Below the pieces are notes generated by a model. It worked only from the letters and a program-made list of their open reading frames with translations. It was not told the DNA's origin and made no database searches. From IMG/VR virus record IMGVR_UViG_2547132278_000006: a DNA stretch of 24,771 nt; one strand, given 5' to 3'. Below are positions 1-24,771 of this stretch, in pieces. Positions within the stretch are counted from its first letter, which is position 1; every line of letters begins with the position of its first letter. The DNA comes from a virus. Lineage: Duplodnaviria; Heunggongvirae; Uroviricota; Caudoviricetes. A program made the translations under genes and the position numbers.

Positions 1-326
<326 letters not shown>

Positions 327-2489: not shown

Positions 2490-3593
2490 TCACACCGCCA
2501 CTGGAACCTTGATCCACGGTAGAGGGGCATAGCCAAGAATAAGAATCTCGTCCCATTTGAAATCATCCAGCTCAGACCATTCATTAGGGAATATAACGAC
2601 CGGATCTGAATGCTCTGGAGCCTGTCGTTGCATTAGCTCACACACACCTTCCATGTGGTTGTTGTACAAATGCACGTCAAAGCCAAAATGCACAAATGCA
2701 CCGGCCATGTGACCCGTAATCTTCGCGAGAAAATGAGTGAGAATGCCATAGCCAGCAATATTGAATGGCATACCAACAAAAGTGTCTACGCTACGCTGTA
2801 CGAGGCAGGAGTTGAGGATGCGTTTGGGGATTCCAAGTTCATCCAGTTCAGTTTCAGTAACACTGCCGTCCATCTCCAGATCGTATAGCATCTTGGTGTA
2901 GATAGACTCATAACCGAGGCGACTGTGTTGAAGACCAATGTCAGTTGCCATCGTTAAACGGGTTTCAAAATCAAGCTCACGACTCCACAAAGAGAAGACA
3001 AAGTGGCAAGGTGGCAGTTTCATATCCTCAAGCTCGCCTACGTTCCATGCGTTAAGCATGATGCGACGATCGGTAGGGTTCGTGCGCAGTGTATCGACAA
3101 TACGCTGTAGCTGATCGATTTCACGGGACAGCACTACGCGATCTTCACTGATACCCAGGTATCCCTCGACTTTGTACCCGCGTAAACGGAAAGTATCGAT
3201 CTTGCTCAGATATTCACTATGGCTCACGATGCGGGTATCTTCCCATCGACGCCACTGCTTACCGTAAACCGGCCCCAAATCGCCATTCTCATCGGCCCAT
3301 GCATCCCAAATCTTAACGCCGTTATCCTTGAGAAATTGGATGTTGCCCGTGCCTTTCAGATACCACTCAAGTTCGACAAGTAGTGGCTTAAGATTTACCG
3401 CCTTTCCAGAAATAAGCGGCACAGTCCCACCAGTAAGCATGTAGTAAGAGGGAACGTAGCAGGTGCTTAAAGTACCAGTGCCTGTGCGATCATCAACCTG
3501 CACGCCGCTTTTAAGCACCGTCTCAATAACTTTTGCATACGATGCGTTTGTTACCTGACCGTTCGTATGCTCACGATTCAAAAGGAGTGACAC
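2490..3593 (-). CDS. thyA: thymidylate synthase (ThyA family), long form with insertions
   Basis: DDRTGTGT, DLGPVYGKQWRRW, RRIMLNAWNVGEL, LPPCH, QRSVDTFVGMPFNIAGY, DVHLYNNH and C-terminal IKVPVAV match ThyA catalytic motifs. The ORF track starts at a GTG at 3620; GTG at 3593 has a GAGG SD 5 nt upstream and is the more likely start. Confidence 0.85.
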   Translation of the reverse strand: MSLLLNREHTNGQVTNASYAKVIETVLKSGVQVDDRTGTGTLSTCYVPSYYMLTGGTVPLISGKAVNLKPLLVELEWYLKGTGNIQFLKDNGVKIWDAWADENGDLGPVYGKQWRRWEDTRIVSHSEYLSKIDTFRLRGYKVEGYLGISEDRVVLSREIDQLQRIVDTLRTNPTDRRIMLNAWNVGELEDMKLPPCHFVFSLWSRELDFETRLTMATDIGLQHSRLGYESIYTKMLYDLEMDGSVTETELDELGIPKRILNSCLVQRSVDTFVGMPFNIAGYGILTHFLAKITGHMAGAFVHFGFDVHLYNNHMEGVCELMQRQAPEHSDPVVIFPNEWSELDDFKWDEILILGYAPLPWIKVPVAV

Positions 3594-3764: not shown

Positions 3765-4634
3765 TTATTTTTTGATCATTCCGTACATTGCTGAGGCTTT
3801 AGCTTGCTCAACAAAGGAGGATAAATCGACATCACTATAGGTTGGAGACTTCAGAATCTTTCCATCGGAAATTCGAAAACCGATCATCTTATCGGTGCCA
3901 TCAGCATGGCGAAATCCCAGGTCAGAAGAGTCGTATTTGCAGTTGGCCACAGCATGGCGACGCTCTTTGGCATCTGCAGGCCATAATTTTGTCATGTTGG
4001 ACCGATGAATTTCGCCAACCAGCTCGACGACATTGATACCGAGGAAATCAGCCAGTCGATAGGTCATCATGCACGCCACATAGATTTTGTTCATTACACG
4101 GCGCAGTTCCTGAATCAGCTCAGAATCCTTAACAGTCTTGTTCTCAAGTTTATCTGCCAGCTCTTCGAGCATACATGACGCCTCACGAGCTTCCTGAAAT
4201 GGCATTGCCATATCATCGAAAACAGTGTTACCAGGCACAAAAATTGTCTGCATAAAGCGATCAATGCTCTGTTCCTGCGTGTAATAAGTCATGCCGGTAG
4301 AAATACCACCTTTGATGGCGACCATCGTACCAACACCAACGTATAAAAAGTCGGCCATTGCATCCAGCAGTTGCTCAATATCCCCATTCATTGCGGCTGG
4401 AATACCTTCCACTACAGCTTCTTCATGAATCAGGCTTGCACGGAGACGAAGCAGCTCTGGTGTCGGCATAACGCGTCTCGGATGCTGGAAGAGTTCATGA
4501 AACTGATCGACCATCTTGTAAATACTTTCAGTGGCTACACCATGGCCTTCATGCAACTCATATGGTTCTGGCTTAAATCCAATGAGTCGATCGGTGGCAA
4601 GTTTCAGGTGGTCAGTCAGTTTGGTAAAGTTCAT
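3765..4634 (-). CDS. hypothetical protein, possibly all-alpha NTP pyrophosphohydrolase (MazG/dimeric dUTPase-like)
   Basis: 289-aa ORF between thyA and nrdB; LIHEEAVVEG...DIEQLLDAMAD loosely resembles the MazG EExxE...ExxD motif and a second helical half suggests a tandem arrangement. Function by weak motif recall only. Confidence 0.5.
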   Translation of the reverse strand: MNFTKLTDHLKLATDRLIGFKPEPYELHEGHGVATESIYKMVDQFHELFQHPRRVMPTPELLRLRASLIHEEAVVEGIPAAMNGDIEQLLDAMADFLYVGVGTMVAIKGGISTGMTYYTQEQSIDRFMQTIFVPGNTVFDDMAMPFQEAREASCMLEELADKLENKTVKDSELIQELRRVMNKIYVACMMTYRLADFLGINVVELVGEIHRSNMTKLWPADAKERRHAVANCKYDSSDLGFRHADGTDKMIGFRISDGKILKSPTYSDVDLSSFVEQAKASAMYGMIKK

Positions 4635-5960: not shown

Positions 5961-8276
5961 TCAGATTTTGCAGGCTCCGTCGCACTCATCTTCTGGCTCG
6001 ACGGCTACAGCTTGCGCCAGTGGATTCTGCGGTTCGTCGTCATCACGCTTTCCTGCACCATCTCTGGTGTTGTGGTAGTAAAGCGTTTTAACTCCCATCT
6101 TGTAGGCGAGAAGCAAATCTGACAGTAGCGTCATCATTGGGACTTTATCGCCTTCAAAGCGAGAAGGGTCATAGTTGGTATTGGCCGAAATAGCCTGGTC
6201 AAAGAACTTCTGGATGATCGCCACCTTTGTCAGATAGCCGCGGTTGTCCGGCATATCCCACAGGTATTCATACTGTTCCTTCAGTTTTTCAAACTCAGGC
6301 ACGACCATCTTGACGATGCCGTCCTTAGAAGATTTCACTGACACCGGGCCACGAGGCGGTTCGATGCCGTTGGTGGAATTAGTGATCTGGCTGGAAGTCT
6401 CGCATGGCATTTGTGCCGTCAGTGTGGAGTTGCGAAGGCCGTATTTTGCAATACGTTCACGCAGTTCTTCCCACGGCATCTTTAACTCAAAGTTTGTTTC
6501 GCCACTTTCGTCTAATGAAGAACGGTAATGGTCGATCGGCAACTGACCAATTGCGTATTTGGTCTGCTCAAACCAGTCACACTCACCTTTTGCTTCGGCA
6601 AGTCGGCAGCTGGCATCAAGAAGGTAATACTGGATAGCTTCGAACGTTTCATGCACCAGTTTATTGCCAGCGGTATCAGAATAACGAACGCCATTCTTTG
6701 CCAGGTAATAAGCAAAGTTGGTTACACCAATTCCCAAGCTACGACGAGCTTTGGCAGGCACTTCGGCTGCCTCCATCGGATAGTCTTGATAATCCAGTAA
6801 CGAATCCAGTGCAGCAACGGCATAGAACGCCACCTCTTTAAGAGACTCCAGTGAACGGATGGCTCCGAGGTTAAAAGCGGATAAAGTGCATAGCGCGATC
6901 TCACCGTTCGGGTCGTCGGTAAATGCCAGTGGACGGGTGGGTAGGGTGATCTCCATACACAGGTTTGACTGGCGGACAGGTGCAAGAGCAGGAATGAAAG
7001 CGCCATGCTCATTAATATGATCGACGTTCGCAATATAAATTCGGCCCGTGGACGCTCGTTCCTGCATCAGAGATGAGAACAGCTCAATGGCAGGTACTGA
7101 CTTCTTGCGAATTGAATCATCGGCTTCGTATTTATGGTACAGCTTTTCAAACAGCTCCTGGTCTGTGAAGAAGGCTTCGTACATATCAGGCACATCATGC
7201 GGGCTGAACAGAGTGATGTTCTCGCTTCTGACGAGTCGACGGTACATTAGACGGTTACTCATGACGCCGTAATCAAGATGGCGAACGCGGTTTTCATCAA
7301 TACCACGGTTATTTTTCACCACCAGCAGACTTTCAACTTCAAGATGCCAGATCGGGTAAAACGCTGTTGCTGCGCCACCACGAACACCACCTTGCGAACA
7401 AGATTTAACAGCCGTCTGGAAATGCTTCAGGAATGGAATAACTCCGGTATGGGTGGCTTCACCATTGCGGATCTCGCTGCCCAGCGCACGGATACGGCCA
7501 AAACCAATACCAATTCCAGCACGACGTGAAACGTAGTCGATAATTGCGGCTGAAGCTGCACTAATCCCTTTCAGACTATCGCCAGACTCAATCAGCACAC
7601 AACTGGAGAACTGACGGGTTGGAGTACGGACGCCGGCCATGATTGGTGTGGGCAGAGACAGTTTGAACGTACTTGTAACGTCATAGAAACCTTTGACCAT
7701 CTCCATACGTGTTTTGCCAGCGCAGTCGTCTTCCCAATTCTGGAACAGACACATGCCTACCAGCATATAGATATGTTGCGGCCCCTCATGAATCTCACCA
7801 GTAACACGGTTTTGAACGAGGTATTTGCTTTGCAACTGCACCGTAGCTGCATAGCCAAAAAGATCGTCACGTTTCGGCTTAATGTAATTGCCGAGTTCTT
7901 CGATCTCTTCAAACGAATAATGTGTCAGCAAATCCTTGTCATAAACGCCCTTGTTAACGTTCTTGACAATGTGTTGGTAGAAGTTCGGATAGTCGTAACG
8001 ACCGAAGGCATCTTTGCGGATTTTAAAAATGTTCAGGCGGGCAGCCACCTGTGAGTAATTTGGTGCTTCTGGTGAGATCAAATCAGCGGCAGATTTAACC
8101 AAAGCCTCATGCAACTGGCTGGTGGTAATCCCATCAAAAATGCTGGCCGCAGCTCCCATTGCTACAGCGGATGCGCTTACACCACGAATGCCTTCTACGC
8201 CATACATTACGACGCGGTTGTATTTTTCTTCGGATAACGGCTCTGTTTGGCCGTTACGTTTTACGATGCTTATCAT
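5961..8276 (-). CDS. nrdA: ribonucleotide reductase class Ia large (alpha) subunit
   Basis: 771 aa; long stretches match recalled E. coli NrdA (YLVQNRVTGEI, LPTPIMAGVRTPTRQFSSCVLIE, CSQGGVRGGAAT, NRVRHLDYG, RQSNLCMEI, C-terminal ...CDGACKI). Confidence 0.95.
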   Translation of the reverse strand: MISIVKRNGQTEPLSEEKYNRVVMYGVEGIRGVSASAVAMGAAASIFDGITTSQLHEALVKSAADLISPEAPNYSQVAARLNIFKIRKDAFGRYDYPNFYQHIVKNVNKGVYDKDLLTHYSFEEIEELGNYIKPKRDDLFGYAATVQLQSKYLVQNRVTGEIHEGPQHIYMLVGMCLFQNWEDDCAGKTRMEMVKGFYDVTSTFKLSLPTPIMAGVRTPTRQFSSCVLIESGDSLKGISAASAAIIDYVSRRAGIGIGFGRIRALGSEIRNGEATHTGVIPFLKHFQTAVKSCSQGGVRGGAATAFYPIWHLEVESLLVVKNNRGIDENRVRHLDYGVMSNRLMYRRLVRSENITLFSPHDVPDMYEAFFTDQELFEKLYHKYEADDSIRKKSVPAIELFSSLMQERASTGRIYIANVDHINEHGAFIPALAPVRQSNLCMEITLPTRPLAFTDDPNGEIALCTLSAFNLGAIRSLESLKEVAFYAVAALDSLLDYQDYPMEAAEVPAKARRSLGIGVTNFAYYLAKNGVRYSDTAGNKLVHETFEAIQYYLLDASCRLAEAKGECDWFEQTKYAIGQLPIDHYRSSLDESGETNFELKMPWEELRERIAKYGLRNSTLTAQMPCETSSQITNSTNGIEPPRGPVSVKSSKDGIVKMVVPEFEKLKEQYEYLWDMPDNRGYLTKVAIIQKFFDQAISANTNYDPSRFEGDKVPMMTLLSDLLLAYKMGVKTLYYHNTRDGAGKRDDDEPQNPLAQAVAVEPEDECDGACKI

Positions 8277-8349
8277 GTATCACCAAATAAAGAGGGCCAC
8301 TAAATATAGTGGCCCATGTTAATAGATAAGCACTTACCTATCAATGAAA

Positions 8350-8919
8350 TCAAATGAGAGACTTAAGAACATCGCGCACCTGGCGGAACTGATCTGTTTG
8401 CATACCGGTATGGATGGCAGCCACCGCATCAGCCAAATGTTCGTTTTTGTTCACGAGAACATCCTGTCCAGATTGCTTACGACGCAGCCACGGTGCTTTA
8501 GGGTGTTTTTTCGTAGCCCACTGGATAATCTCTTCTTTCGATGTAGTAAGTTTATTGCCGACAAAATGCTTGATTTCGTTTGGAGTAACCTGGATCAATG
8601 GCTTATCCACACACGCAAGTACACCGATACAAATACCGTAAGACGTCTGCGAACGAGAGTTTTGGCTCCCAACCGGTAGCTCACAAAAAACCATATTTGC
8701 CTTATCAATGATTGGCTTCGCAACACGCCATATTTCACTGGCTCGGCGCAGATCGTCACTGTTCACACGAACGGTCTTTTTGTTACTCCCCGCTTTAGTC
8801 TCAACAAGAGTAAGGCCGTGAATCTCAAGTTCGTCCGTCTCAAGGTCTAAAGTGCCCACAGCAAGCCCAAAGTTGCTCATTGAGGGATCAACACCAACTA
8901 CGCTGATTTTTTTACTCAT
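8350..8919 (-). CDS. RuvC-like Holliday junction resolvase
   Basis: N-terminal ISVVGVDPSMSNFGLAV (RuvC ILGIDPG...GYGV pattern), mid FCELP (catalytic Glu region), C-terminal LADAVAAIHTG (RuvC DAADALAIAITH pattern). Confidence 0.6.
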   Translation of the reverse strand: MSKKISVVGVDPSMSNFGLAVGTLDLETDELEIHGLTLVETKAGSNKKTVRVNSDDLRRASEIWRVAKPIIDKANMVFCELPVGSQNSRSQTSYGICIGVLACVDKPLIQVTPNEIKHFVGNKLTTSKEEIIQWATKKHPKAPWLRRKQSGQDVLVNKNEHLADAVAAIHTGMQTDQFRQVRDVLKSLI

Positions 8920-8928
8920 ATAGTCTCC

Positions 8929-9672
8929 TTACCATGTTCCCCATATAGGGTTTTCCAATAATCTCGCCTCCAACGAATTGGCTACTATTGCCGTTTGCAA
9001 CGTTGGTTGGGGATAGTTTGCAAAGTCTGAATACTCATTTTCCTGCGTGACACGTTTATCTGCGGCATGTTTAACACCACTTGCTATGAAATGACGCATG
9101 ATGCCCAACAGCCTCCGACTGTCTGCACTATCGTTTGCTAAAACATGAGGGAGCTGAAGTTCGATTTCTACCATTTCTCCATACTTACCAACAAACTGTA
9201 GTTTGTCCGCACTGTACTTTTTATCCCTCCTTTGGATAAGGAAACCAGTAAAAGCATCACCTGGCGATGCCAAACTATCCACCCGCTTATTGGCAAGTCG
9301 AATAAGGTTCGTGAAAGCCATACAGTGATGCGCACCCATTCCCCCAAAGAACCCTTCGCTATTAATGTTAAGATCTTCAGTTTCATGGGATGCAATAAAC
9401 CCAGGCCCGACGTTGGGAAGATATCCCCCCTCAACAAAAGGATTAATCAGGATCGGCGCAATACATCCAGGTGGTAGTGATTTCAAACTTTGCATCAATG
9501 GCGTCTCGGATATTAGACCAAGCAACGCGGCGAATTGTACTCCGTCAATATTGTTGCTGCCCCACAGAATACGTGGAGCCGCACCATTGGAAGTATGCCC
9601 ATTGATCAGTTTTATCGACTGCATCACTGCAAATACCTGCAAAAACTGCGAGCGACTTAATTTAAACGACAT
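8929..9672 (-). CDS. hypothetical protein (247 aa)
   Basis: Intact ORF between the resolvase and Rad50-like genes; its start overlaps the rad50-like stop by 11 nt; no confident motif. Confidence 0.55.
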   Translation of the reverse strand: MSFKLSRSQFLQVFAVMQSIKLINGHTSNGAAPRILWGSNNIDGVQFAALLGLISETPLMQSLKSLPPGCIAPILINPFVEGGYLPNVGPGFIASHETEDLNINSEGFFGGMGAHHCMAFTNLIRLANKRVDSLASPGDAFTGFLIQRRDKKYSADKLQFVGKYGEMVEIELQLPHVLANDSADSRRLLGIMRHFIASGVKHAADKRVTQENEYSDFANYPQPTLQTAIVANSLEARLLENPIWGTW

Positions 9673-13147: not shown

Positions 13148-13792
13148 TTACAGCGCGTCAGTGGGCTTTTTACGCGCTGCGTTTATGCTTATGACGCCAG
13201 CTTTTGGACGTGGGTCAACAAGGTTAAGCTCTTCTTCGCTGTGGTATTCGAGGTCGAACTCACGTTTTACATGTCTGATGTAGATTGCGGTGAGCAGGCT
13301 ATCTTTGGTCAGAAAGTGTCCGTAGGATTTGCGGATCACTTCTTCTACCTTCTCGATTTTCTCACCACCCATACAGAGATGATTAAACCGGCTGTGTTTC
13401 CGCAACATTTCGTATACTGGGCCTGAGTAAACCTTGTCTACTTTCCCAAAACGGATGATTTTCCCTGTGTCTGCGGATACGAGGCAAATCAGCTTGTCTG
13501 GTGATAAACGATCTCGCCACGTCACACCTGAACGGAGTGTGTTGAAGTAGGGAGCATCCAATCCGATGATCGGTTTACGAAATGCGAGTAATGGAACGTA
13601 CCTGATGCAACTGTTTAAATGAAAATTCACACCAGCCTTATCAAGTTTAATTCTGGTTTCGTAGATCGGGCACTTCGCCGCTATACCGCAGATGTCACAA
13701 AGCAACTTCTGCTTATTCAGGTTGGAATTTGATTCGATAGTGTAGGAGCCGTCTTCAAGACGACGAACCCAGCGCGTGCGTTTTAGATCCAT
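13148..13792 (-). CDS. hypothetical Cys-containing protein, divergent from repA and adjacent to the origin
   Basis: 214-aa ORF with clustered cysteines (LLCDICGIAAKCPIY...NSC); function unknown. Confidence 0.5.
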   Translation of the reverse strand: MDLKRTRWVRRLEDGSYTIESNSNLNKQKLLCDICGIAAKCPIYETRIKLDKAGVNFHLNSCIRYVPLLAFRKPIIGLDAPYFNTLRSGVTWRDRLSPDKLICLVSADTGKIIRFGKVDKVYSGPVYEMLRKHSRFNHLCMGGEKIEKVEEVIRKSYGHFLTKDSLLTAIYIRHVKREFDLEYHSEEELNLVDPRPKAGVISINAARKKPTDAL

Positions 13793-13870
13793 ATGTCATT
13801 TTTCTGTGATTGTTAGCCGAGGCAACGATAACCCACCAGGTGCGCCGAAGGTAGTAAATGCCTGTTTTAA

Positions 13871-13951
13871 TTATTCACATATCCACAGGATAGATCCTAA
13901 TAAAGAGATCCATAGATAGATCCTTATATAGATCAAATAAGATCCCCGATC
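13871..13951. promoter_or_regulatory. oriR-like origin element: tandem DnaA boxes followed by a cluster of six GATC (Dam) sites
   Basis: TTATTCACA (13871-13879) and ATATCCACA (13879-13887) are each 1 mismatch from the DnaA box TTATCCACA. GATC at 13893, 13907, 13919, 13931, 13941 and 13948, i.e. 6 sites in 59 bp within AGATCC-type repeats. Confidence 0.6.
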
Positions 13952-13991
13952 GCTGTAAGCCGCGCCACGCCTGGTCTAAAGTCATGTTCAT

Positions 13992-14093
13992 GTATGCTGT
14001 CAGCGGTAATTGATAGTCTGTCAGCGGTTCACCGTATGCTGCCAACTGTTTTTGGTATTCTGTCAGCGGCAAATCAAGTATGCTGTCAGCGGT
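13992..14093 (+). repeat. origin iterons: 5 direct repeats of a 16-bp unit (GTATGCTGTCAGCGGT) at 21-23 bp spacing
   Basis: Units start at 13992 (perfect), 14013, 14034 (degenerate), 14055 and 14078 (perfect); phased at about 2 helical turns; they end 20 bp before the repA ATG, so they overlap the repA promoter region. Confidence 0.8.
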
Positions 14094-14113
14094 TGAATGA
14101 CAAAGGTGTCCAC

Positions 14114-15208
14114 ATGTCCACAAAAAATAAAAAAGGTAAAAATAACAAAGAAGTAGAAGATAACATCGACAACTTTGAAGAAGGTTCCCTTGAATTGTAC
14201 ACAGGGGAACTTGTCCCTAATAGCAACAATACAGTCCAACCAATTGCGTTGATGCGACTGGGGTTGTTCGTCCCCACGCTTAAGGGAACAAAATACAGTA
14301 AACGTAACAAGCCAAATGAGATCGATGCTTCAAAGGAGCTTGTCCAGCTCGAAGTAGCCCGTTCTGAAGGCTATTCCGATATCAAGATAACCGGTCCTCG
14401 TCTCGACATGGATCATGATTTCAAAACGTGGGTGGGCGTTGTGCGTTCGCTGGCAGAATACGGCGAACCTAACGGTCGTGTCGAGTTAAGCATCACGAAA
14501 TTTGCTAAGTTTTGTGGCTATCCATCGTCACAGATCCGCAAAACACTCCGCGACCGGCTTACAAACAGTCTTTTGAAGATCATGCGTACAACTCTGTCTT
14601 TCCAGAGAACGTATGAAGAAAAGAACGTCGACGGCTCTAACAAGATCTCGCTTCTGATGGTGCACCTCATCAATAGCGTGGACTACAACGAGCAGAAAGA
14701 TACGGTGGTGTTCTATGCAGAACCGAAGCTGGCCGAACTATATCGCTTTGACCATAAGGTTCTTTTGCAGTTAAAGGTTATCAATAAGCTACCACGCAAA
14801 GAAACAGCACAGGCTCTGTACACCTTCATCGAAAGTCTTCCAACCAAGCCTGCGCCGGTATCGCTTGCTCGATTGCGTGCGCGACTCAATTTGAGTAGCA
14901 GGAATGTAAGCTCGCAGAATCAGACTATACGTAACGGCTTAAAAGCTCTCCAAGATTTGGGCTATCTCGAATACAGCGAGATTAAGCGAGGGCGGTCGAT
15001 CTATATCCAGATTCACAGCCGTAATCCAAAACTTAAAGTCGCACCGCCAAAACCTGAAGACATCGAACCCAAAAAACCAGATGAGAAAGCCGGGGAAATT
15101 GATGCTAAACAGAACATTATCAACAAGATAACTGAACTTTCGCAGAATTTGACGCCTGAAAATATCAAGATGATTGAGATCCTTTCCAATAGTCTCAAAC
15201 TGCTTTGA
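14114..15208 (+). CDS. repA: iteron-binding replication initiator (RepA-like), 365 aa
   Basis: The only substantial plus-strand gene; flanked upstream by 5 iterons and downstream by 12. Start taken at ATG 14114 (MSTKNKKGK...); the ORF track's 5' extension to 13994 runs through the iterons. Assignment is mainly contextual (P1/F-type organisation). Confidence 0.7.
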   Translation: MSTKNKKGKNNKEVEDNIDNFEEGSLELYTGELVPNSNNTVQPIALMRLGLFVPTLKGTKYSKRNKPNEIDASKELVQLEVARSEGYSDIKITGPRLDMDHDFKTWVGVVRSLAEYGEPNGRVELSITKFAKFCGYPSSQIRKTLRDRLTNSLLKIMRTTLSFQRTYEEKNVDGSNKISLLMVHLINSVDYNEQKDTVVFYAEPKLAELYRFDHKVLLQLKVINKLPRKETAQALYTFIESLPTKPAPVSLARLRARLNLSSRNVSSQNQTIRNGLKALQDLGYLEYSEIKRGRSIYIQIHSRNPKLKVAPPKPEDIEPKKPDEKAGEIDAKQNIINKITELSQNLTPENIKMIEILSNSLKLL

Positions 15209-15740
15209 TATGCTGTCAGCGGTGAAATGTATGCTATCAGCGGCTATTTTTCTGAAATGTATGCTGTGAACGGTTAAAGATATGCTACCAGCGGTATAGT
15301 GAGATGAACGTATGCTGTGAGCGGTAAATCATCTATCACCACTCAATGCTCTGTCATACCTCCCCAGTGGTTACTAACCTCGAAGAGTGCATTCCATATA
15401 GGTTTGCGCTCACTAACATTCTATTGCTATTGCGCTGATTGCTTGTAGTGAAAGGCATTTATTGCCTGCTGCTCCCTGATAGAACGTATGCTGTCAGCGG
15501 TGTTTTATTGAGGAATTTTTGTTTGGATATGCTATCAGCGGTAATTAATGGTATATGTCAGACCTTCGTATGCTGCCAGCGGTAATTTTGTTCTGGTTAT
15601 ACCCATACCGGTACACATTATTCATGCAATGTCTTAAGTATGCTGCCAGCGGTAAAAAATCGAGTAAAGTATGCTGTGAGCGGTGATATAGACTCTCGAT
15701 ATGCTATCAGCGGTAGTTGATTGTGTATGCTGTCAGCGGT
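15209..15740 (+). repeat. incA-like copy-control array: 12 direct iterons of the same 16-bp unit
   Basis: Units start at 15209, 15230, 15260, 15281, 15311, 15486, 15527, 15568, 15638, 15669, 15699 and 15725, all same orientation; most spacings are about 21, 30-31 or 41 bp (roughly 2, 3 and 4 helical turns), with 26 and 70 bp as exceptions; 0-3 mismatches to consensus; a 160-bp iteron-free spacer at 15327-15485. Confidence 0.8.
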
Positions 15741-15757
15741 GACGACTATGAAATATG

Positions 15758-15780
15758 ACTGCGGAACGAGCCGCAGTCAG
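15758..15780. terminator. stem-loop (GACTGCGG-AACGAG-CCGCAGTC) at the end of the iteron array
   Basis: 8-bp perfect inverted repeat followed on the plus strand by TTTGCATTT; lies between the iterons and the convergent CDS 15788..16000. Confidence 0.35.
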
Positions 15781-15787
15781 TTTGCAT

Positions 15788-16000
15788 TTAGTGTATTTTC
15801 TTTAACAGACCCCAAAGTGTTCCGGCTTTTGTAGTCAGTTTTCCTGTTTCTGGATCGTACATACGCCATTCACGCCGCTGGTGGACGATATACCCATCTT
15901 CACGTTCCAGACGCTCAAGAATGCCAGGCTGCTTGAAACCCTTAGCACGCCAGTAGCCGCTTGTTTTCTCGATTTCCAGACCTGCCAGTGTTAATGCCAT
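15788..16000 (-). CDS. hypothetical small protein (70 aa)
   Basis: ORF whose start overlaps the upstream gene's stop (ATGA at 16000); no motif. Confidence 0.5.
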   Translation of the reverse strand: MALTLAGLEIEKTSGYWRAKGFKQPGILERLEREDGYIVHQRREWRMYDPETGKLTTKAGTLWGLLKKIH

Positions 16001-16335
16001 TACCCAACCTCCTTGCAGTCATCGAAAAGGTAGCTTTGCTGAGAAGCGTGAACGCCATAAAAGCCCTTGTATTTGTTGTATACGAAGTGGTCTTCTCCGA
16101 CGCCGGTTAATTTGCCATTACGATTTGTGAGATATGGGGATGACAACACTCGATCGTCACGCACAATATAGAACTGGTCGCCGCTGTCTACGACCATCGC
16201 TCCATATGGTGCTTTTATGACGTCGGTAAGAGCGCCATTCTTAACGTCGGCTACAGACATTTCACACTGATAAACAGTGGTGTCGGCCACAACGATCGAA
16301 GAAAGAAACAACAGCGCGAATGGGATGGTCTTCAT
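16000..16335 (-). CDS. small secreted protein with N-terminal signal peptide (111 aa)
   Basis: MKTIPFALLFLSSIVVADTT has n/h/c-region character; two Cys (mature N-terminus and C-terminus) could form a disulfide. Confidence 0.6.
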   Translation of the reverse strand: MKTIPFALLFLSSIVVADTTVYQCEMSVADVKNGALTDVIKAPYGAMVVDSGDQFYIVRDDRVLSSPYLTNRNGKLTGVGEDHFVYNKYKGFYGVHASQQSYLFDDCKEVG

Positions 16336-18525: not shown

Positions 18526-19599
18526 TTACTCTTCTACTGACTCGGTGGGGTTGTCTTTTGCTCTTCGGTCGTCGATTGCCTGCAAAGCCGCAATGATTTC
18601 AGCCAGTGGCTTCTCCCGATACATCTCGACGATCTGCGATTTGGTGTATTTCTTGTCACCAATTTCAACTCGCCCGCTGGCGTTCTTTGGCAGGTATCCT
18701 TCTTCCAGCATGTACTCGACGAGCGATTCGATAACGTCGAGGCCACGAGTAGGATCGAAGTAGAATTTCCAGGTGCATTTGCCATACGGTGGTGCAACTT
18801 TGTTTTTGATGCATTCTGCGCCTACGTCCTGGCCGATCTTCTCTTTACCATCCTTCATCACCGATGCACCAAGACGGATACGTACAGAAGCGTAGAACTT
18901 CGGTGAATCTCCACCTGGCGACGTAGTAGGGTCGCCAAACATTACACCGATTTTTGTGCGAACCTGATTCAAGAAGATGATGCAGGCGTTGTATTTGCGT
19001 GCCCACAAAGCCAGAGTAGGGAAGTTCGCACTTGTCGCACGAGCCAGTGCCGTATTGTCGTTCATGTTTAGCTGATCTTTGTCTTTGGCAGTGCCTTCAG
19101 CCATCTTTTCGAACTTCTCGGCTTTGGAGTTCGGAACCATAGACGCAAGTGAGTCAGCCACGATACAGATAGGTGCTGATTCAGGGATAAGCTCTTCATC
19201 ACGTACCAATTTAAGTATTGTGCCGATCAACTCTACAGAGTCTTCGAAGGTGTCAGGCTGCTTGTATACCCACTGACCGTCATCCTCATCTGCGTTCAGG
19301 CCATTGGCTACAGCCAGGCCAACGTCAAAACTGTTTTCATGATCGAGGAATACCGCCAGACCATCTTGTTTTTGAGCGGAGATCATCGCTGCTGTTGCAA
19401 GGAACGTTTTCCCTGCACTTGGAGGACCGAATACTTCGACGATACGACCACATGGGAAGCCGCCATCGTAACGACCAGAAATAGCTTTGTTTAACGGTGG
19501 AAAGCCTGTATCAATCCAATGAGTTACTTTCTGAATTTCGTCGTTGCTACCGATTTTCTTTTTCAGAGCAAGTGCCAGTGCGGATTTTCCTTTTGCCAT
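18526..19599 (-). CDS. recA: RecA-family recombinase
   Basis: Walker A GRIVEVFGPPSAGKTFLA; FLNQVRTKIGVMFGDPTTSPGGDSPKFYASVRIRLG is near-identical in pattern to recalled E. coli RecA ([36 protein letters not shown]). Confidence 0.9.
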   Translation of the reverse strand: MAKGKSALALALKKKIGSNDEIQKVTHWIDTGFPPLNKAISGRYDGGFPCGRIVEVFGPPSAGKTFLATAAMISAQKQDGLAVFLDHENSFDVGLAVANGLNADEDDGQWVYKQPDTFEDSVELIGTILKLVRDEELIPESAPICIVADSLASMVPNSKAEKFEKMAEGTAKDKDQLNMNDNTALARATSANFPTLALWARKYNACIIFLNQVRTKIGVMFGDPTTSPGGDSPKFYASVRIRLGASVMKDGKEKIGQDVGAECIKNKVAPPYGKCTWKFYFDPTRGLDVIESLVEYMLEEGYLPKNASGRVEIGDKKYTKSQIVEMYREKPLAEIIAALQAIDDRRAKDNPTESVEE

Positions 19600-22575: not shown

Positions 22576-24485
22576 TCACGACTTAATAGTTTCTGCTACG
22601 TCGGCTAATATCGCTTCTAGTCGTTCTCCCTCTTCAGGTCTGAAGTAAAGAATGTTGGGGTTAAACCCGTAAAAGACAGTAACGTCAAGGTCTGGAAGAT
22701 ACTCCTTCCTGCCGACCAAATCGGATGGCTTGTTTTTGTTGTTAAACAATGCCGTTGCCCGGCTGCCACACGTCAGCACATAGGTCGGACGCACCAGATT
22801 GATCTCTTCACGTATAAAGTCGGTGAACTGGCCGATCTCGTCTTTGGTGTAGTCTTTTTCTTTGTCTTTAACCTTCTTGCAAACGCCTGTGACATAGAGA
22901 TCGCCCATGCGTAAATCTCCAGCCGTCAATAGCTTGGCCTTAAAGTCGTCGTATCCGTTCTCCATAAAGTAACCGGTTCGAGCATCATTGCCGTTCGCAT
23001 TGTCCAGAATGATCATGATTTTCGGCTTAATACCAATGCTGGGGCGGATTAGTTCATCACCTAAGCCCATTTCAGCCGCCATCCGCGTCATGAGTACGTT
23101 AATTTCAGCCGAACGTTTGGGGTTCATCTCAAACGGACGTGAGGCTTTAACTGCGTCTATGACAAGGTTTCCCATCAATTCAGCCTGGTCGCGTAGGCGC
23201 TCTGGATCAGTTGCTGGCAGACTGCCTGGCTCGATGGATGCAAACGCCCCTACTTTTTGCAGCGATTCGCGCACTCGACTATTACAGGCACGTTTCTCGA
23301 CAGCTTCTTCGAATTGCGCCAGTGACTCGAATTTGCCGCCAACTTTTTCTCGCGCTCTCATGATGGCTTGGCAGCCATTCTCAGAACACCCCTTCACAGC
23401 AGAGAAGGGCGCATACAGCACCTGGCTGCCATCTTCAAGCGTGCGGATCTCGATTCGGTTAGATGACACGTTAACGTCTGGTGGCAATACGCGAATGCCA
23501 TAGGTCAGCGCATCTTTAACCAGCCCCTGGTGTTTATCTTCGCCAAGAATAGTGAGAGCAGCAGCGAAAAACTCTGCGGGATAATGAGTTTTCAACCACA
23601 TAGATTGATAACTGATTAAGGAGTAAGCAACAGAGTGTGATTTGTTGAACTGGTAGGCACCATTCTTTTCGAATGCGGTCCAGATCTCCTTCGCTTTCAT
23701 CTCTGATAGCCCTGGATGTGACGCTGTAACGCGTACTGCGTTTATAGGTAGTTTTGCGCCGTACTCAAGTGCCTCTTCGACAGTTTTCAGAGTTCCGTCT
23801 TCGCATTTAAAATGTTCCGCACGGTGAATGCGCTGTGTAGTGCCATCTTCCAGCTCAACGTCTATCCAGCCAGCTTGAGCCTGAACGATGAACTTCTCGC
23901 CCATGCTCTTCATTTTTTCCATGTCTTTTTTGCCGATCGCTTTACGAACGCCGTCAGCTTCAGCCATTGTGAAGCCAGCAAGCAATCGAGTCGCGTTCAT
24001 CGTCTGTTCCTGATAGAGAATCACGCCATTTGTTTCTGCGGTAAGTTCATCAAGAACGGGGTGTAATGATTCCGGCGTCATAAAGCCTTTGGCTACAGAA
24101 ACATAGTCATCCAACATGCCTGACTGAATTGGCCCCGGCCGGAAGAGCGCAGTCGTAGCAACAACCGTTTTAAAGCTCATTGGCTCAATTCCACCACCTA
24201 AATCTTTAAGCAGCTTGCGCATTGGGCCTGATTCAAGCTGGAAAACACCTTGAGTGTACCCAGCAGCAAAACCATCCAGCACCTTGCGATCTTCAAGAGA
24301 AATGGCATCAAGATTGATATCTTCACCTGTGTTCTCTTTTATGTAGCGTTTTGCACTATCGAGCAAATCGAGAGTTGCCAGGCCAAGCACGTCCAGCTTA
24401 ATTAGGCCCATAGCCTCGCAGTAACGCTTGTCAAATGCGATACAACGCGCGTCACCACGGCGCTCAACCGGTGTACGTTCTGTCA
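22576..24485 (-). CDS. dnaE: DnaE-type (Pol III alpha-like, family C) DNA polymerase, 5'-truncated at the IS junction; C-terminal uracil-DNA-glycosylase-family-4-like domain
   Basis: IAFDKRYCEAMGLIKLDVLGL, GVFQLESGPM, ALFRPGPIQSGM, GVILYQEQ and FNKSHSVAYSLISYQSMWLKTHYPAEFFAAALT match the E. coli DnaE palm/fingers from about residue 530 onward; the first ~500 residues are missing. The ORF-track 'start' at 24513 lies inside the IS terminal repeat (IS end at 24486), so the first 9 codons are IS-derived. Confidence 0.75.

Positions 24486-24771
<286 letters not shown>

Follow-up and report, generated by a model that had tools for sequence, protein, structure and literature searches.

A probable plasmid-maintenance module of an E. 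coli phage-plasmid, comprising an origin, the initiator gene repA and copy-control repeats, was found in the window (the whole 24,771-nt stretch of DNA that was analysed). The region is very probably the plasmid-prophage replicon of an SSU5/pECOH89-type phage-plasmid, homologous to oriR-repA-incA of P1 and working in the P1 fashion. The replicon is ordinary and already catalogued, being known as IncFIB(H89-PhagePlasmid) in PlasmidFinder, and its cis-elements may have been described before. The anatomy, the homology with P1 and the exclusively plasmid-borne occurrence were established by the present analysis; the sole item that is possibly new is a bipartite element at 15363-15419. A search of the literature, which did not cover the two likeliest papers, found no experiments on the exact replicon. 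The features of the region are the following.

13871..13887, plus strand: two tandem DnaA boxes, TTATTCACA and ATATCCACA, aligned with the DnaA protein_bind site annotated in P1 oriR
13889..13951, unstranded: six-GATC cluster of (A/T)AGATCC repeats, 68% A+T, collinear with the five annotated Dam sites of P1 oriR
13952..13974, unstranded: GC-rich spacer GCTGTAAGCCGCGCCACGCCTGG, separating the iterons from the GATC repeats
13992..14093, plus strand: five origin iterons (incC equivalent), spacing 21/21/21/23 bp
14052..14081, plus strand: weak candidate repA promoter (TTGGTA, 16-18 nt spacer, TCAAGT or AAGTAT), homologous in position to the annotated P1 PrepA
14114..15208, plus strand: repA, coding for 364 aa; predicted iteron-binding initiator (P1 RepA/RepFIB family) with two winged-helix domains in tandem
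15208..15325, plus strand: proximal control iterons, 5 copies, spacing 21/30/21/30
15363..15419, plus strand: conserved bipartite non-iteron element within the 160-bp gap of the control array
15486..15740, plus strand: distal control iterons, 7 copies, spacing 41/41/70/31/30/26
15756..15779, unstranded: GC-rich hairpin with a 9 bp stem, bidirectional terminator-like

In the first-pass annotation, two tandem DnaA-box-like 9-mers and six GATC sites in 59 bp were reported upstream of the iterons, and both observations held. The box at 13871-13879 is a perfect TTATNCACA, the one at 13879-13887 deviates by 1 mismatch, and one base is common to both. The six GATC sites lie at 13893-13951, compared with a maximum of 2 per 60 bp elsewhere in the window. 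This AT-rich region is presumed to be the unwinding region and the Dam/SeqA target. The GC-rich spacer was largely conserved, with most columns invariant, in an alignment of the window, P1, JK004, Klebsiella pJN2-26 and a Cronobacter plasmid. The nucleotide identity between P1 oriR and window positions 13860-13974 was 78%, the DnaA site, the Dam sites and the spacer being collinear.

The mismatch-tolerant scan with the iteron GTATGCTGTCAGCGGT (up to 3 mismatches) resulted in 17 matches, all on the plus strand, whereas 0.21 were expected by chance and 0 of 100 shuffled sequences reached this number. The earlier count of 17 same-strand copies, five before and twelve after the ORF, was thereby confirmed. 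The origin iterons start at 13992, 14013, 14034, 14055 and 14078; the last one ends at 14093, leaving, as had been claimed, 20 bp before the repA ATG at 14114. The same origin-iteron layout was detected in Klebsiella, Cronobacter and other E. coli copies, and the architecture of the replicon as a whole is kept in Klebsiella, Cronobacter and Salmonella relatives.

The downstream repeats (15208-15740) had been described as a single 12-copy control array. The number was correct but the continuity was not, as 160 bp without iterons (15326-15485) separate the first 5 copies from the other 7. Position 15208, the final base of the repA TGA stop, is where the first control iteron (ATATGCTG...) begins; the previous placement, 1 nt after the stop, is an equivalent reading counted from the T at 15209. 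The control iterons are spaced in multiples of ~10.4 bp. Their number varied among the relatives: 9 in PhiR41_1, 8 in Klebsiella and 10-11 elsewhere. PhiR41_1 lacks the last three distal iterons through an iteron-to-iteron deletion. An inverted iteron-like sequence within repA (14448-14462) was rejected as a chance match, since it has 4 mismatches to the 16-mer consensus and about 2 matches at 4 mismatches are calculated for a window of this size. The repA genes of the scanned relatives contained no minus-strand iteron match at 3 or fewer mismatches.

The repA start at 14114 is preceded by the Shine-Dalgarno AAGG at 14103-14106. The RefSeq product is 404 aa long and starts at 13994; its extra 40 residues are iterons translated in frame (ATGCTGTCAGCGGT = MLSAV), and the RepA homologues start at the Met of 14114 instead. 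The initiator was correctly described as larger than P1 RepA, but its length is 364 and not 365 aa. The impression of an unusually large protein was not sustained: most RepFIB-family homologues have 320-360 aa with a C-terminal linker-plus-helix tail, as here, and P1 RepA is the short outlier.

RepA shared 46% identity with P1 RepA over 278 aa (BLASTP, E 3e-86) and 49% with SSU5 RepA, and tblastn matched repA of P1, P7 and RCS47. The comparison of the ORF product with Rep_3/RepA families, proposed in the first-pass annotation, gave a match to PHROG 775 (RepA family, E 5e-133) and to Pfam Rep3_N (PF01051) in the first winged-helix domain (E 3.9e-9, 37.5 bits versus a cutoff of 22.4). The second domain, Rep3_C (PF21205), remained below the Pfam threshold by sequence (E 0.13), and P1 RepA and SSU5 RepA were also slightly under this cutoff. 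None of the three proteins matched NCBIfam. The AF2 model of RepA, of moderate confidence (pLDDT 69.6), matched RctB domains 2-3, RepE54-iteron complexes, pi, pPS10 RepA WH1 and TrfA (Foldseek, E 6e-8 to 4e-3). The alignments with chains of the RepE54-iteron complex spanned 206-226 columns over both domains, and 262 columns were aligned with pi, so that the modelled fold points to a second winged-helix domain. The tandem winged-helix fold and the general iteron logic are predicted to resemble those of RepE (mini-F), pi (R6K), RepA (pPS10), TrfA (RK2) and RctB domains 2-3 (Vibrio chromosome 2). The likeness to these solved structures is at the fold level only, with no detectable sequence similarity; the PDB sequence search with RepA gave nothing meaningful and only the fold search gave matches. 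That the repeats are operators of an unrelated regulator and the ORF encodes no initiator has a negligible probability. No evidence for this explanation was found, and it is effectively refuted by the P1 RepA homology, the initiator fold and the collinearity with the annotated RepA-binding iterons of P1.

The P1/F-style iteron replicon recognised at first was supported by the RepA homology, the fold and the collinearity with oriR. The order of DnaA boxes, GATC/AT-rich repeats, GC-rich spacer, five phased iterons, repA and control array is the same as in P1. The spacing of the five incC iterons is 21/21/21/22 in P1, and in both replicons the control array (incA in P1) starts with the final base of the stop codon of repA. 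Judged by sequence, the likeness to the P1 replicon is one of true homology and not of analogy. The differences are modest. P1 has the iteron GATGTGTGCTGGAGGGAAA in place of RTATGCTGYSAGCGGT, and all 12 control iterons are direct here, in contrast to the 9 of P1 (3 direct and 6 inverted). From the last iteron to the ATG, the leader is ~36 bp shorter here and lacks the DnaA-box-like motif TATCCACA of P1. RepA has ~12 more N-terminal residues and a 55-aa C-terminal tail compared with P1 RepA, and unlike in P1, parAB is not adjacent to the replicon.

All the mechanistic steps are taken from P1 and other iteron plasmids, and by this analogy we infer the following course. RepA monomers would bind the five phased origin iterons and, together with host DnaA at the two adjacent boxes, open the AT-rich GATC-repeat region, which would have to be Dam-methylated and, once the origin has fired, would be sequestered by SeqA. 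Opening would be followed by loading of the host helicase and replisome. RepA on the origin iterons would also repress the repA promoter buried there. By homology with P1 the origin iterons should contain this promoter; the consensus sigma-70 scan reported none in the iterons at its threshold, and its overall counts were not above those of shuffled sequences. The 12 downstream iterons would constitute the negative control (incompatibility) locus, titrating RepA and "handcuffing" with the origin iterons to keep the copy number low.

It is highly improbable that the 12-iteron array is chiefly a second origin, a replication enhancer or a partition-/pairing-type site instead. The direct orientation of 12/12 copies, which departs from P1 incA, and the division of the array by a conserved non-iteron element would be in line with such a role. 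However, the array shows none of the origin hallmarks (AT-rich stretch, GATC cluster, DnaA boxes), so that any role of this kind would be unconventional. Its position is homologous to that of P1 incA in both the stop-codon start and the ~10.4-bp-multiple spacing, and the natural variation from 8 to 12 copies fits a dosage-type control element. Separate ParA/ParB-like genes also exist elsewhere on the plasmid. Negative copy control is the preferred function of the array.

The neighbours of the replicon are phage replication genes (gp32-like SSB, RecA, 5'-3' exonuclease, dnaE, SbcCD-like and nrdAB). Domain searches found no recognisable DNA-binding domain in the small proteins adjoining the replicon, no tRNAs were found in the window and the Rfam search of 13500-16200 (E up to 1) gave no match. 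The location amid the phage's own replication genes could suggest that the RepA/iteron module serves also, or instead, as the lytic (vegetative) origin of the phage, with the conserved extra element as a possible switch; to our knowledge, no separate lytic origin is known for the SSU5/pECOH89-type family. This explanation is improbable in comparison with plasmid maintenance. Homologous replicons drive ordinary non-phage plasmids, i.e. those of the RepFIB family and the IncF plasmid pCFSAN004177P_01, which holds a related replicon of 81% identity. P1 uses a separate oriL/repL for lytic growth. Moreover, the present copy persists as a plasmid although IS100 splits its dnaE, which argues that its maintenance is independent of the phage polymerase.

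The IS100 ends are located at window positions 1-326 and 24486-24771, and dnaE is split at 24485. Because of this disruption, the present phage-plasmid copy is probably defective as a phage. The E. coli plasmid pTW10722_119, which is 100% identical to the window and belongs to the SSU5/pHCM2/pECOH89 phage-plasmid family, has four IS100 copies and ISEc47 in its record. No annotated CDS crosses the stretch with IS100 that lies there between the genes for tail assembly and tail fibres, and, judged by annotation gaps alone, further genes are possibly disrupted by IS100. The split dnaE and these possible losses incline this copy towards a "plasmidised" prophage. It does not qualify as an intact, inducible phage; there are related members that are intact, such as PhiR41_1. 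The initial proposal of a phage-plasmid or plasmidised prophage was borne out by pTW10722_119, on which genes for siphovirus structure and packaging are present (terminase, portal, major capsid, tape-measure, tail and tail-fibre). The ParA/ParB-like genes lie on the same plasmid, away from the replicon, and its sole typed replicon is rep_cluster_488.

The replicon was present in 120 of 5,426 complete E. coli genomes, where all 186 locations were on plasmids and 0 were chromosomal. In PLSDB, 143 plasmids carried the replicon and 136 of these were non-mobilizable. Near-identical phage records were PhiR41_1 and CMS-2020a. The SSU5/pHCM2/pECOH89 phage-plasmids are a described family (PMC3999498, PMC7969092), and those of the SSU5 supergroup have been typed as IncFIB (PMC7969092). 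Cyrano, an SSU5-type relative, was reported at ~5.5 copies per chromosome (PMC9928086).

In the SSU5/Cyrano (pLF82)/pHCM2 type, the replicon occupies the same backbone slot, between the phrog_2105 gene and the phrog_804 "Cre-associated" gene, and the flanking genes and the DnaA/GATC part are ~76-77% identical to the window. The RepA identity between pECOH89 and pLF82 is 48% (PMC3999498). The SSU5 iteron, AACCACTGTAGAGAGT, differs from the present one, its control iterons are direct and then inverted, and an additional upstream iteron set is found. The bipartite non-iteron element is common to both types but inverted relative to repA in SSU5. These differences in the iteron, the array and the element orientation indicate that the two types presumably have different incompatibility specificities. 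In RepFIB replicons, which occur in IncF and other plasmids of enterobacteria (RefSeq "RepB family plasmid replication initiator"), the RepA homologues have 45-58% identity and repA has, as here, iterons on either side. These replicons differ in that the present replicon resides in a siphovirus genome and has a type-specific iteron sequence.

Scientifically nothing unexpected was found, and the replicon is another case of P1-type replicons shuffled among unrelated phage backbones. For annotation, the locus serves to identify the contig as an SSU5/pECOH89-type phage-plasmid. Such phage-plasmids spread blaCTX-M-15 and dfrA genes. The cis-map (DnaA boxes, Dam sites, GC spacer, 5 + 12 iterons and the corrected repA start) may help to predict incompatibility, to build mini-replicons and to correct the RefSeq RepB start, which now translates iterons as protein.

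The P1 model leaves the element inside the control array unexplained, and this element alone among the findings merits experimental work. Two 16-bp pseudo-palindromes, nnnAGTGRYYACTAAC, located ~39 bp apart within 57 bp (15363-15419), make up the element; some relatives have the perfect palindrome GTTAGTGATCACTAAC as one of the two copies. The element occurs once per replicon, in the H89 and SSU5 types alike, and is absent from P1. It is kept across replicons with RepA proteins only ~48% identical and unrelated iterons, and its orientation relative to repA flips with the replicon type. The motif did not occur again in the rest of the plasmid (118 kb examined), which weakened its reading as an operator of a master repressor. 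The 160-bp gap was also considered as relics of SSU5-type iterons, but the alignment revealed a sharply bounded conserved block that is the iteron of neither type. A hairpin or ssDNA signal was unsupported due to the weak energy (-5.8 kcal/mol) and the lack of compensatory changes. It is rather doubtful that SSU5-supergroup replicons have, in this element, a second class of cis-acting control site that has so far escaped description. Such a site would be bound by something besides the iteron-reading surface of RepA, e.g. a dimeric host- or phage-encoded regulator, and might link the control of plasmid copy number to the cell cycle or the lysogeny/lytic decision. The non-iteron 39-mers of Vibrio cholerae ori2 offer a loose analogy.

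The hairpin at 15756..15779 closes the replicon module and also ends the convergent minus-strand operon.

The overall interpretation of the first-pass annotation was upheld: the 13871-15740 sequence, whose description was borne out on re-inspection, is an iteron replicon of the P1 family (RepFIB type) and belongs to a phage-plasmid lineage that has already been catalogued. The scan of the 24.8-kb window with the 16-mer GTATGCTGTCAGCGGT at ≤3 mismatches resulted in 17 matches, all on the plus strand, in line with the 17 one-orientation copies described earlier. By chance 0.21 matches were expected, and none of 100 shuffles attained 17. Within the window the copies were confined to two sets, one in the origin and one in the downstream array. 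The count of 12 copies in the latter was correct, but the set is not a single block, being divided into 5 + 7 copies by a 160-bp gap. According to the information-content profile, the iteron core is 16 bp (RTATGCTGYSAGCGGT) with sharp limits, followed by an A/T-rich tail. The spacings of neighbouring iterons were mostly integer multiples of ~10.4 bp. Both reported tandem DnaA-box-like 9-mers and the cluster of six GATC sites were also detected; elsewhere in the window, GATC did not exceed two sites per 60 bp.

13871-13879, DnaA box 1, TTATTCACA, perfect match
13879-13887, DnaA box 2, ATATCCACA, one mismatch, one base in common with box 1
13893-13951, six GATC sites of the origin
13992-14093, plus strand, five origin iterons, start-to-start spacing 21/21/21/23
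15208-15740, plus strand, twelve downstream iterons (GTATGCTGTCAGCGGT scan, ≤3 mismatches)

The curated P1 genome annotation was used as the reference for comparison. Its order is an 18-bp DnaA site, five Dam sites, five incC (origin) iterons with a spacing of 21/21/21/22 and PrepA inside, repA, and incA, the downstream control iterons, the first of which begins at the final base of the repA stop codon. The proposed P1-style architecture was confirmed: each of these parts recurs in the window with the order unchanged, and here too the array begins at the stop codon. In blastn, window 13860-13974 was 78% identical to P1 oriR (E 7e-18). A multiple alignment placed the DnaA boxes, the (A/T)AGATCC repeats and a GC-rich spacer (GCCGCGCCACG.CTGG) of the window opposite their counterparts in four other origins, those of P1, P1-like JK004, Klebsiella pJN2-26 and a Cronobacter plasmid. 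The iterons occupy the same positions as in P1 but differ in sequence, and the longer P1 leader before the ATG, containing the DnaA-box-like TATCCACA, is missing from the window. The homology to P1 extends to the cis elements (oriR/incA).

The repA ORF was located at 14114-15208 as annotated, although its product is 364 aa and not 365 aa. The HMM search with this product passed the Pfam Rep3_N (WH1) cutoff (37.5 vs 22.4 bits) and gave only a weak score with Rep3_C (WH2); the same pattern was determined for P1 and SSU5 RepA. In pairwise BLASTP the window RepA was 46% identical to P1 RepA (E 3e-86) and 49% to SSU5 RepA (E 3e-106). The tblastn search against phages gave 48% identity with SSU5 and Cyrano RepA and 41-44% with those of P1, P7, RCS47 and SJ46 (E 1e-55 to 1e-68). 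The database search yielded 477 relatives across Enterobacterales, named RepB-family, RepA or RepFIB initiators. Sequence searches of PDB and NCBIfam with RepA found nothing. The initiator is larger than P1 RepA (286 aa), as had been pointed out, but this is not unusual: in the alignment, the conserved ...RNPKLK motif of most 320-360-aa homologues is followed by a charged linker and then a terminal helix, a tail absent from P1 RepA, so that a protein of this length is the norm for the family. The RefSeq/PGAP initiator models of 404-407 aa (e.g. WP_001348683.1) start within the first iteron, and the homologue alignment revealed that the first 40 residues of the 404-aa models (MLSAV...MLSAV..., window 13994-14113) are an in-frame translation of the iterons. 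The alignment supports Met-14114, with AAGG upstream, as the true start. The AlphaFold2 model of RepA had a mean pLDDT of 69.6; most of the core scored 70-90, and the termini and linker were disordered. The Foldseek matches of the model in PDB were RctB domains 2-3, many RepE54-iteron complexes and the RepE dimer, and further pi-iteron, pPS10 RepA WH1 and TrfA.

Plasmid pTW10722_119 (ETEC strain TW10722) matched the region at 100% identity, and more than 100 E. coli and Shigella plasmids of ~105-115 kb, mostly non-mobilizable, did so at 98-99.8%, among them p2009EL-2050 (O104:H4); the phage records PhiR41_1 and CMS-2020a also matched. In the literature these are assigned to the SSU5/pHCM2/pECOH89 phage-plasmid family (PMC3999498; PMC8085198; PMC7969092). 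The replicon is already known: it is annotated, serves as a typing marker, being listed in PlasmidFinder as an IncFIB type (PMC7969092; bioRxiv 10.1101/2025.09.12.675607), and was present in 120 of 5,426 complete E. coli genomes (~2%), where all 186 matching places were on plasmids and none was chromosomal. The search for structural and partition genes was positive in the rest of pTW10722_119, which has the phage genes for terminase, portal, major capsid, tape measure, tail and tail fibre. Also encoded there are a small ParA-like ATPase and proteins with a ParB domain, as well as a DnaB-like helicase, ligase, RNase H and an N6-adenine methyltransferase. The replicon is indeed embedded among phage replication genes, the window flanks encoding nrdAB, thyA, DHFR, SbcCD-like, RecA, gp32-like SSB, 5'-3' exonuclease and dnaE. 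A 214-aa phrog_2105 protein with no Pfam domain is encoded at 13148-13792 (minus strand). Its gene is transcribed divergently from the origin, with its start 79 bp away from the DnaA boxes, and is conserved in this place in the relatives from SSU5, Klebsiella and Cronobacter.

Both window ends are IS100 termini inverted to each other (1-326 and 24486-24771), and the right-hand one splits phage dnaE (DNA polymerase III alpha) at 24485. The full record contains four IS100 copies and ISEc47, and it shows no annotated CDS where IS100 separates the genes for tail assembly from those for the tail fibre. Therefore, of the phage-plasmid or plasmidised prophage suggested earlier, this copy of the family is probably a defective, "plasmidised" phage. 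Close relatives, e.g. PhiR41_1, have been deposited as phages. The RecA-like gene of PhiR41_1 (779 aa) has a 1,269-bp insertion compared with the 357-aa RecA of the window (L002, the PhiR41_1 record, 7741-9009 vs window 19404-19408), which could be an intein or homing-endonuclease insertion.

While anatomy and homology were determined here, the steps of the mechanism are drawn from P1 and iteron-plasmid biology, as described by Abeles, Austin, Chattoraj and Wickner. On this model, DnaK/DnaJ/GrpE would turn RepA dimers into monomers, which would bind the five phased iterons, while the tandem boxes would be occupied by DnaA. Melting of the methylated GATC/AT-rich repeats would let host DnaB and the replisome enter, and SeqA would sequester the hemimethylated GATCs. 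RepA on the iterons would repress its own promoter, and the downstream array would titrate RepA and handcuff origins, resulting in low copy number and incompatibility. General iteron-plasmid points are covered in PMC6090056. The plasmid's own adenine methyltransferase may help to maintain GATC methylation. As this copy persists with dnaE split by IS100, its maintenance seems to rely on the host replisome. The ~5.5 copies per chromosome of Cyrano, an SSU5-type relative, in overnight culture (PMC9928086) fit a low-copy iteron replicon.

Both the iteron and the set of five at the origin were retained in the copies from Klebsiella, Cronobacter and Salmonella and in further ones from E. coli. Their downstream arrays contain 8-12 iterons, all direct, and such differences in array size could tune copy number. 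In PhiR41_1 the last three control iterons were lost by an iteron-to-iteron deletion (L002 ~4060-4075 vs window 15654-15740). The 20-bp "attR" (1378-1397) and "attL" (2648-2667) annotated as phage attachment sites in the deposited record of Klebsiella phage pJN2-26 (L005) coincide with iterons (starts 1379 and 2649) and look like an annotation artefact from repeats. The SSU5 replicon occupies the same backbone slot, with ~77% identity to the window in the genes on either side and in the DnaA/GATC segment, whereas its iteron, AACCACTGTAGAGAGT, is unrelated and its control array has direct then inverted copies, like P1. Thus, at least two RepA/iteron specificity types exist on one phage backbone, which agrees with the 48% identity between pECOH89 and pLF82 RepA (PMC3999498) and with "conserved phage, variable plasmid genes" (PMC7969092). 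SSU5 has an additional 3-4 iterons (L004, the SSU5 record, 912-999) ~300 bp upstream of the five repA-proximal ones, beside the DnaA/GATC segment, and given these its origin layout may differ from those of P1 and the window. A copy of the window's replicon type, IncFIB(H89-PhagePlasmid), with 81% identity was detected in a 34.7-kb mobilizable IncFIA/FIC plasmid without phage genes (CP012496.1, 27621-31988; L009), between a transposase gene and the resolvase/ccdAB region. Its two DnaA boxes are perfect, it has five GATC sites, and the iterons downstream number only about four. This copy shows that phage-plasmids and ordinary plasmids exchange the replicon module.

The gap of the control array offers a modest side lead, a conserved non-iteron element that forms a block with sharp boundaries and flanks unalignable between lineages. 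It consists of two nnnAGTGRYYACTAAC pseudo-palindromes ~39 bp apart, the second of which is a perfect palindrome, GTTAGTGATCACTAAC, in some variants.

15363-15419, bipartite element in the window
2639-2700, minus strand, bipartite element in L004 (SSU5)
~2928-2990, bipartite element in L005 (Klebsiella pJN2-26)
~3085-3145, bipartite element in locus L010
~1350-1410, bipartite element in locus L012

Scanning IMG/VR for the pattern gave 108 stretches; in 65 of them the bipartite element was complete, and these made up 27 sequence variants. In every locus checked it followed a repA homologue at a distance of a few hundred bp, inside or beside the control array. It was not found in P1, JK004 or the IncF plasmid copy, and had no second occurrence within 118 kb of pTW10722_119. 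A hairpin is possible but weak and without compensatory changes, and Rfam gave zero family matches. The element is common to H89-type and SSU5-type replicons despite their unrelated iterons, in the orientation of repA in the former and inverted in the latter. The most economical guess is a putative site for a dimeric protein other than the iteron-reading RepA.
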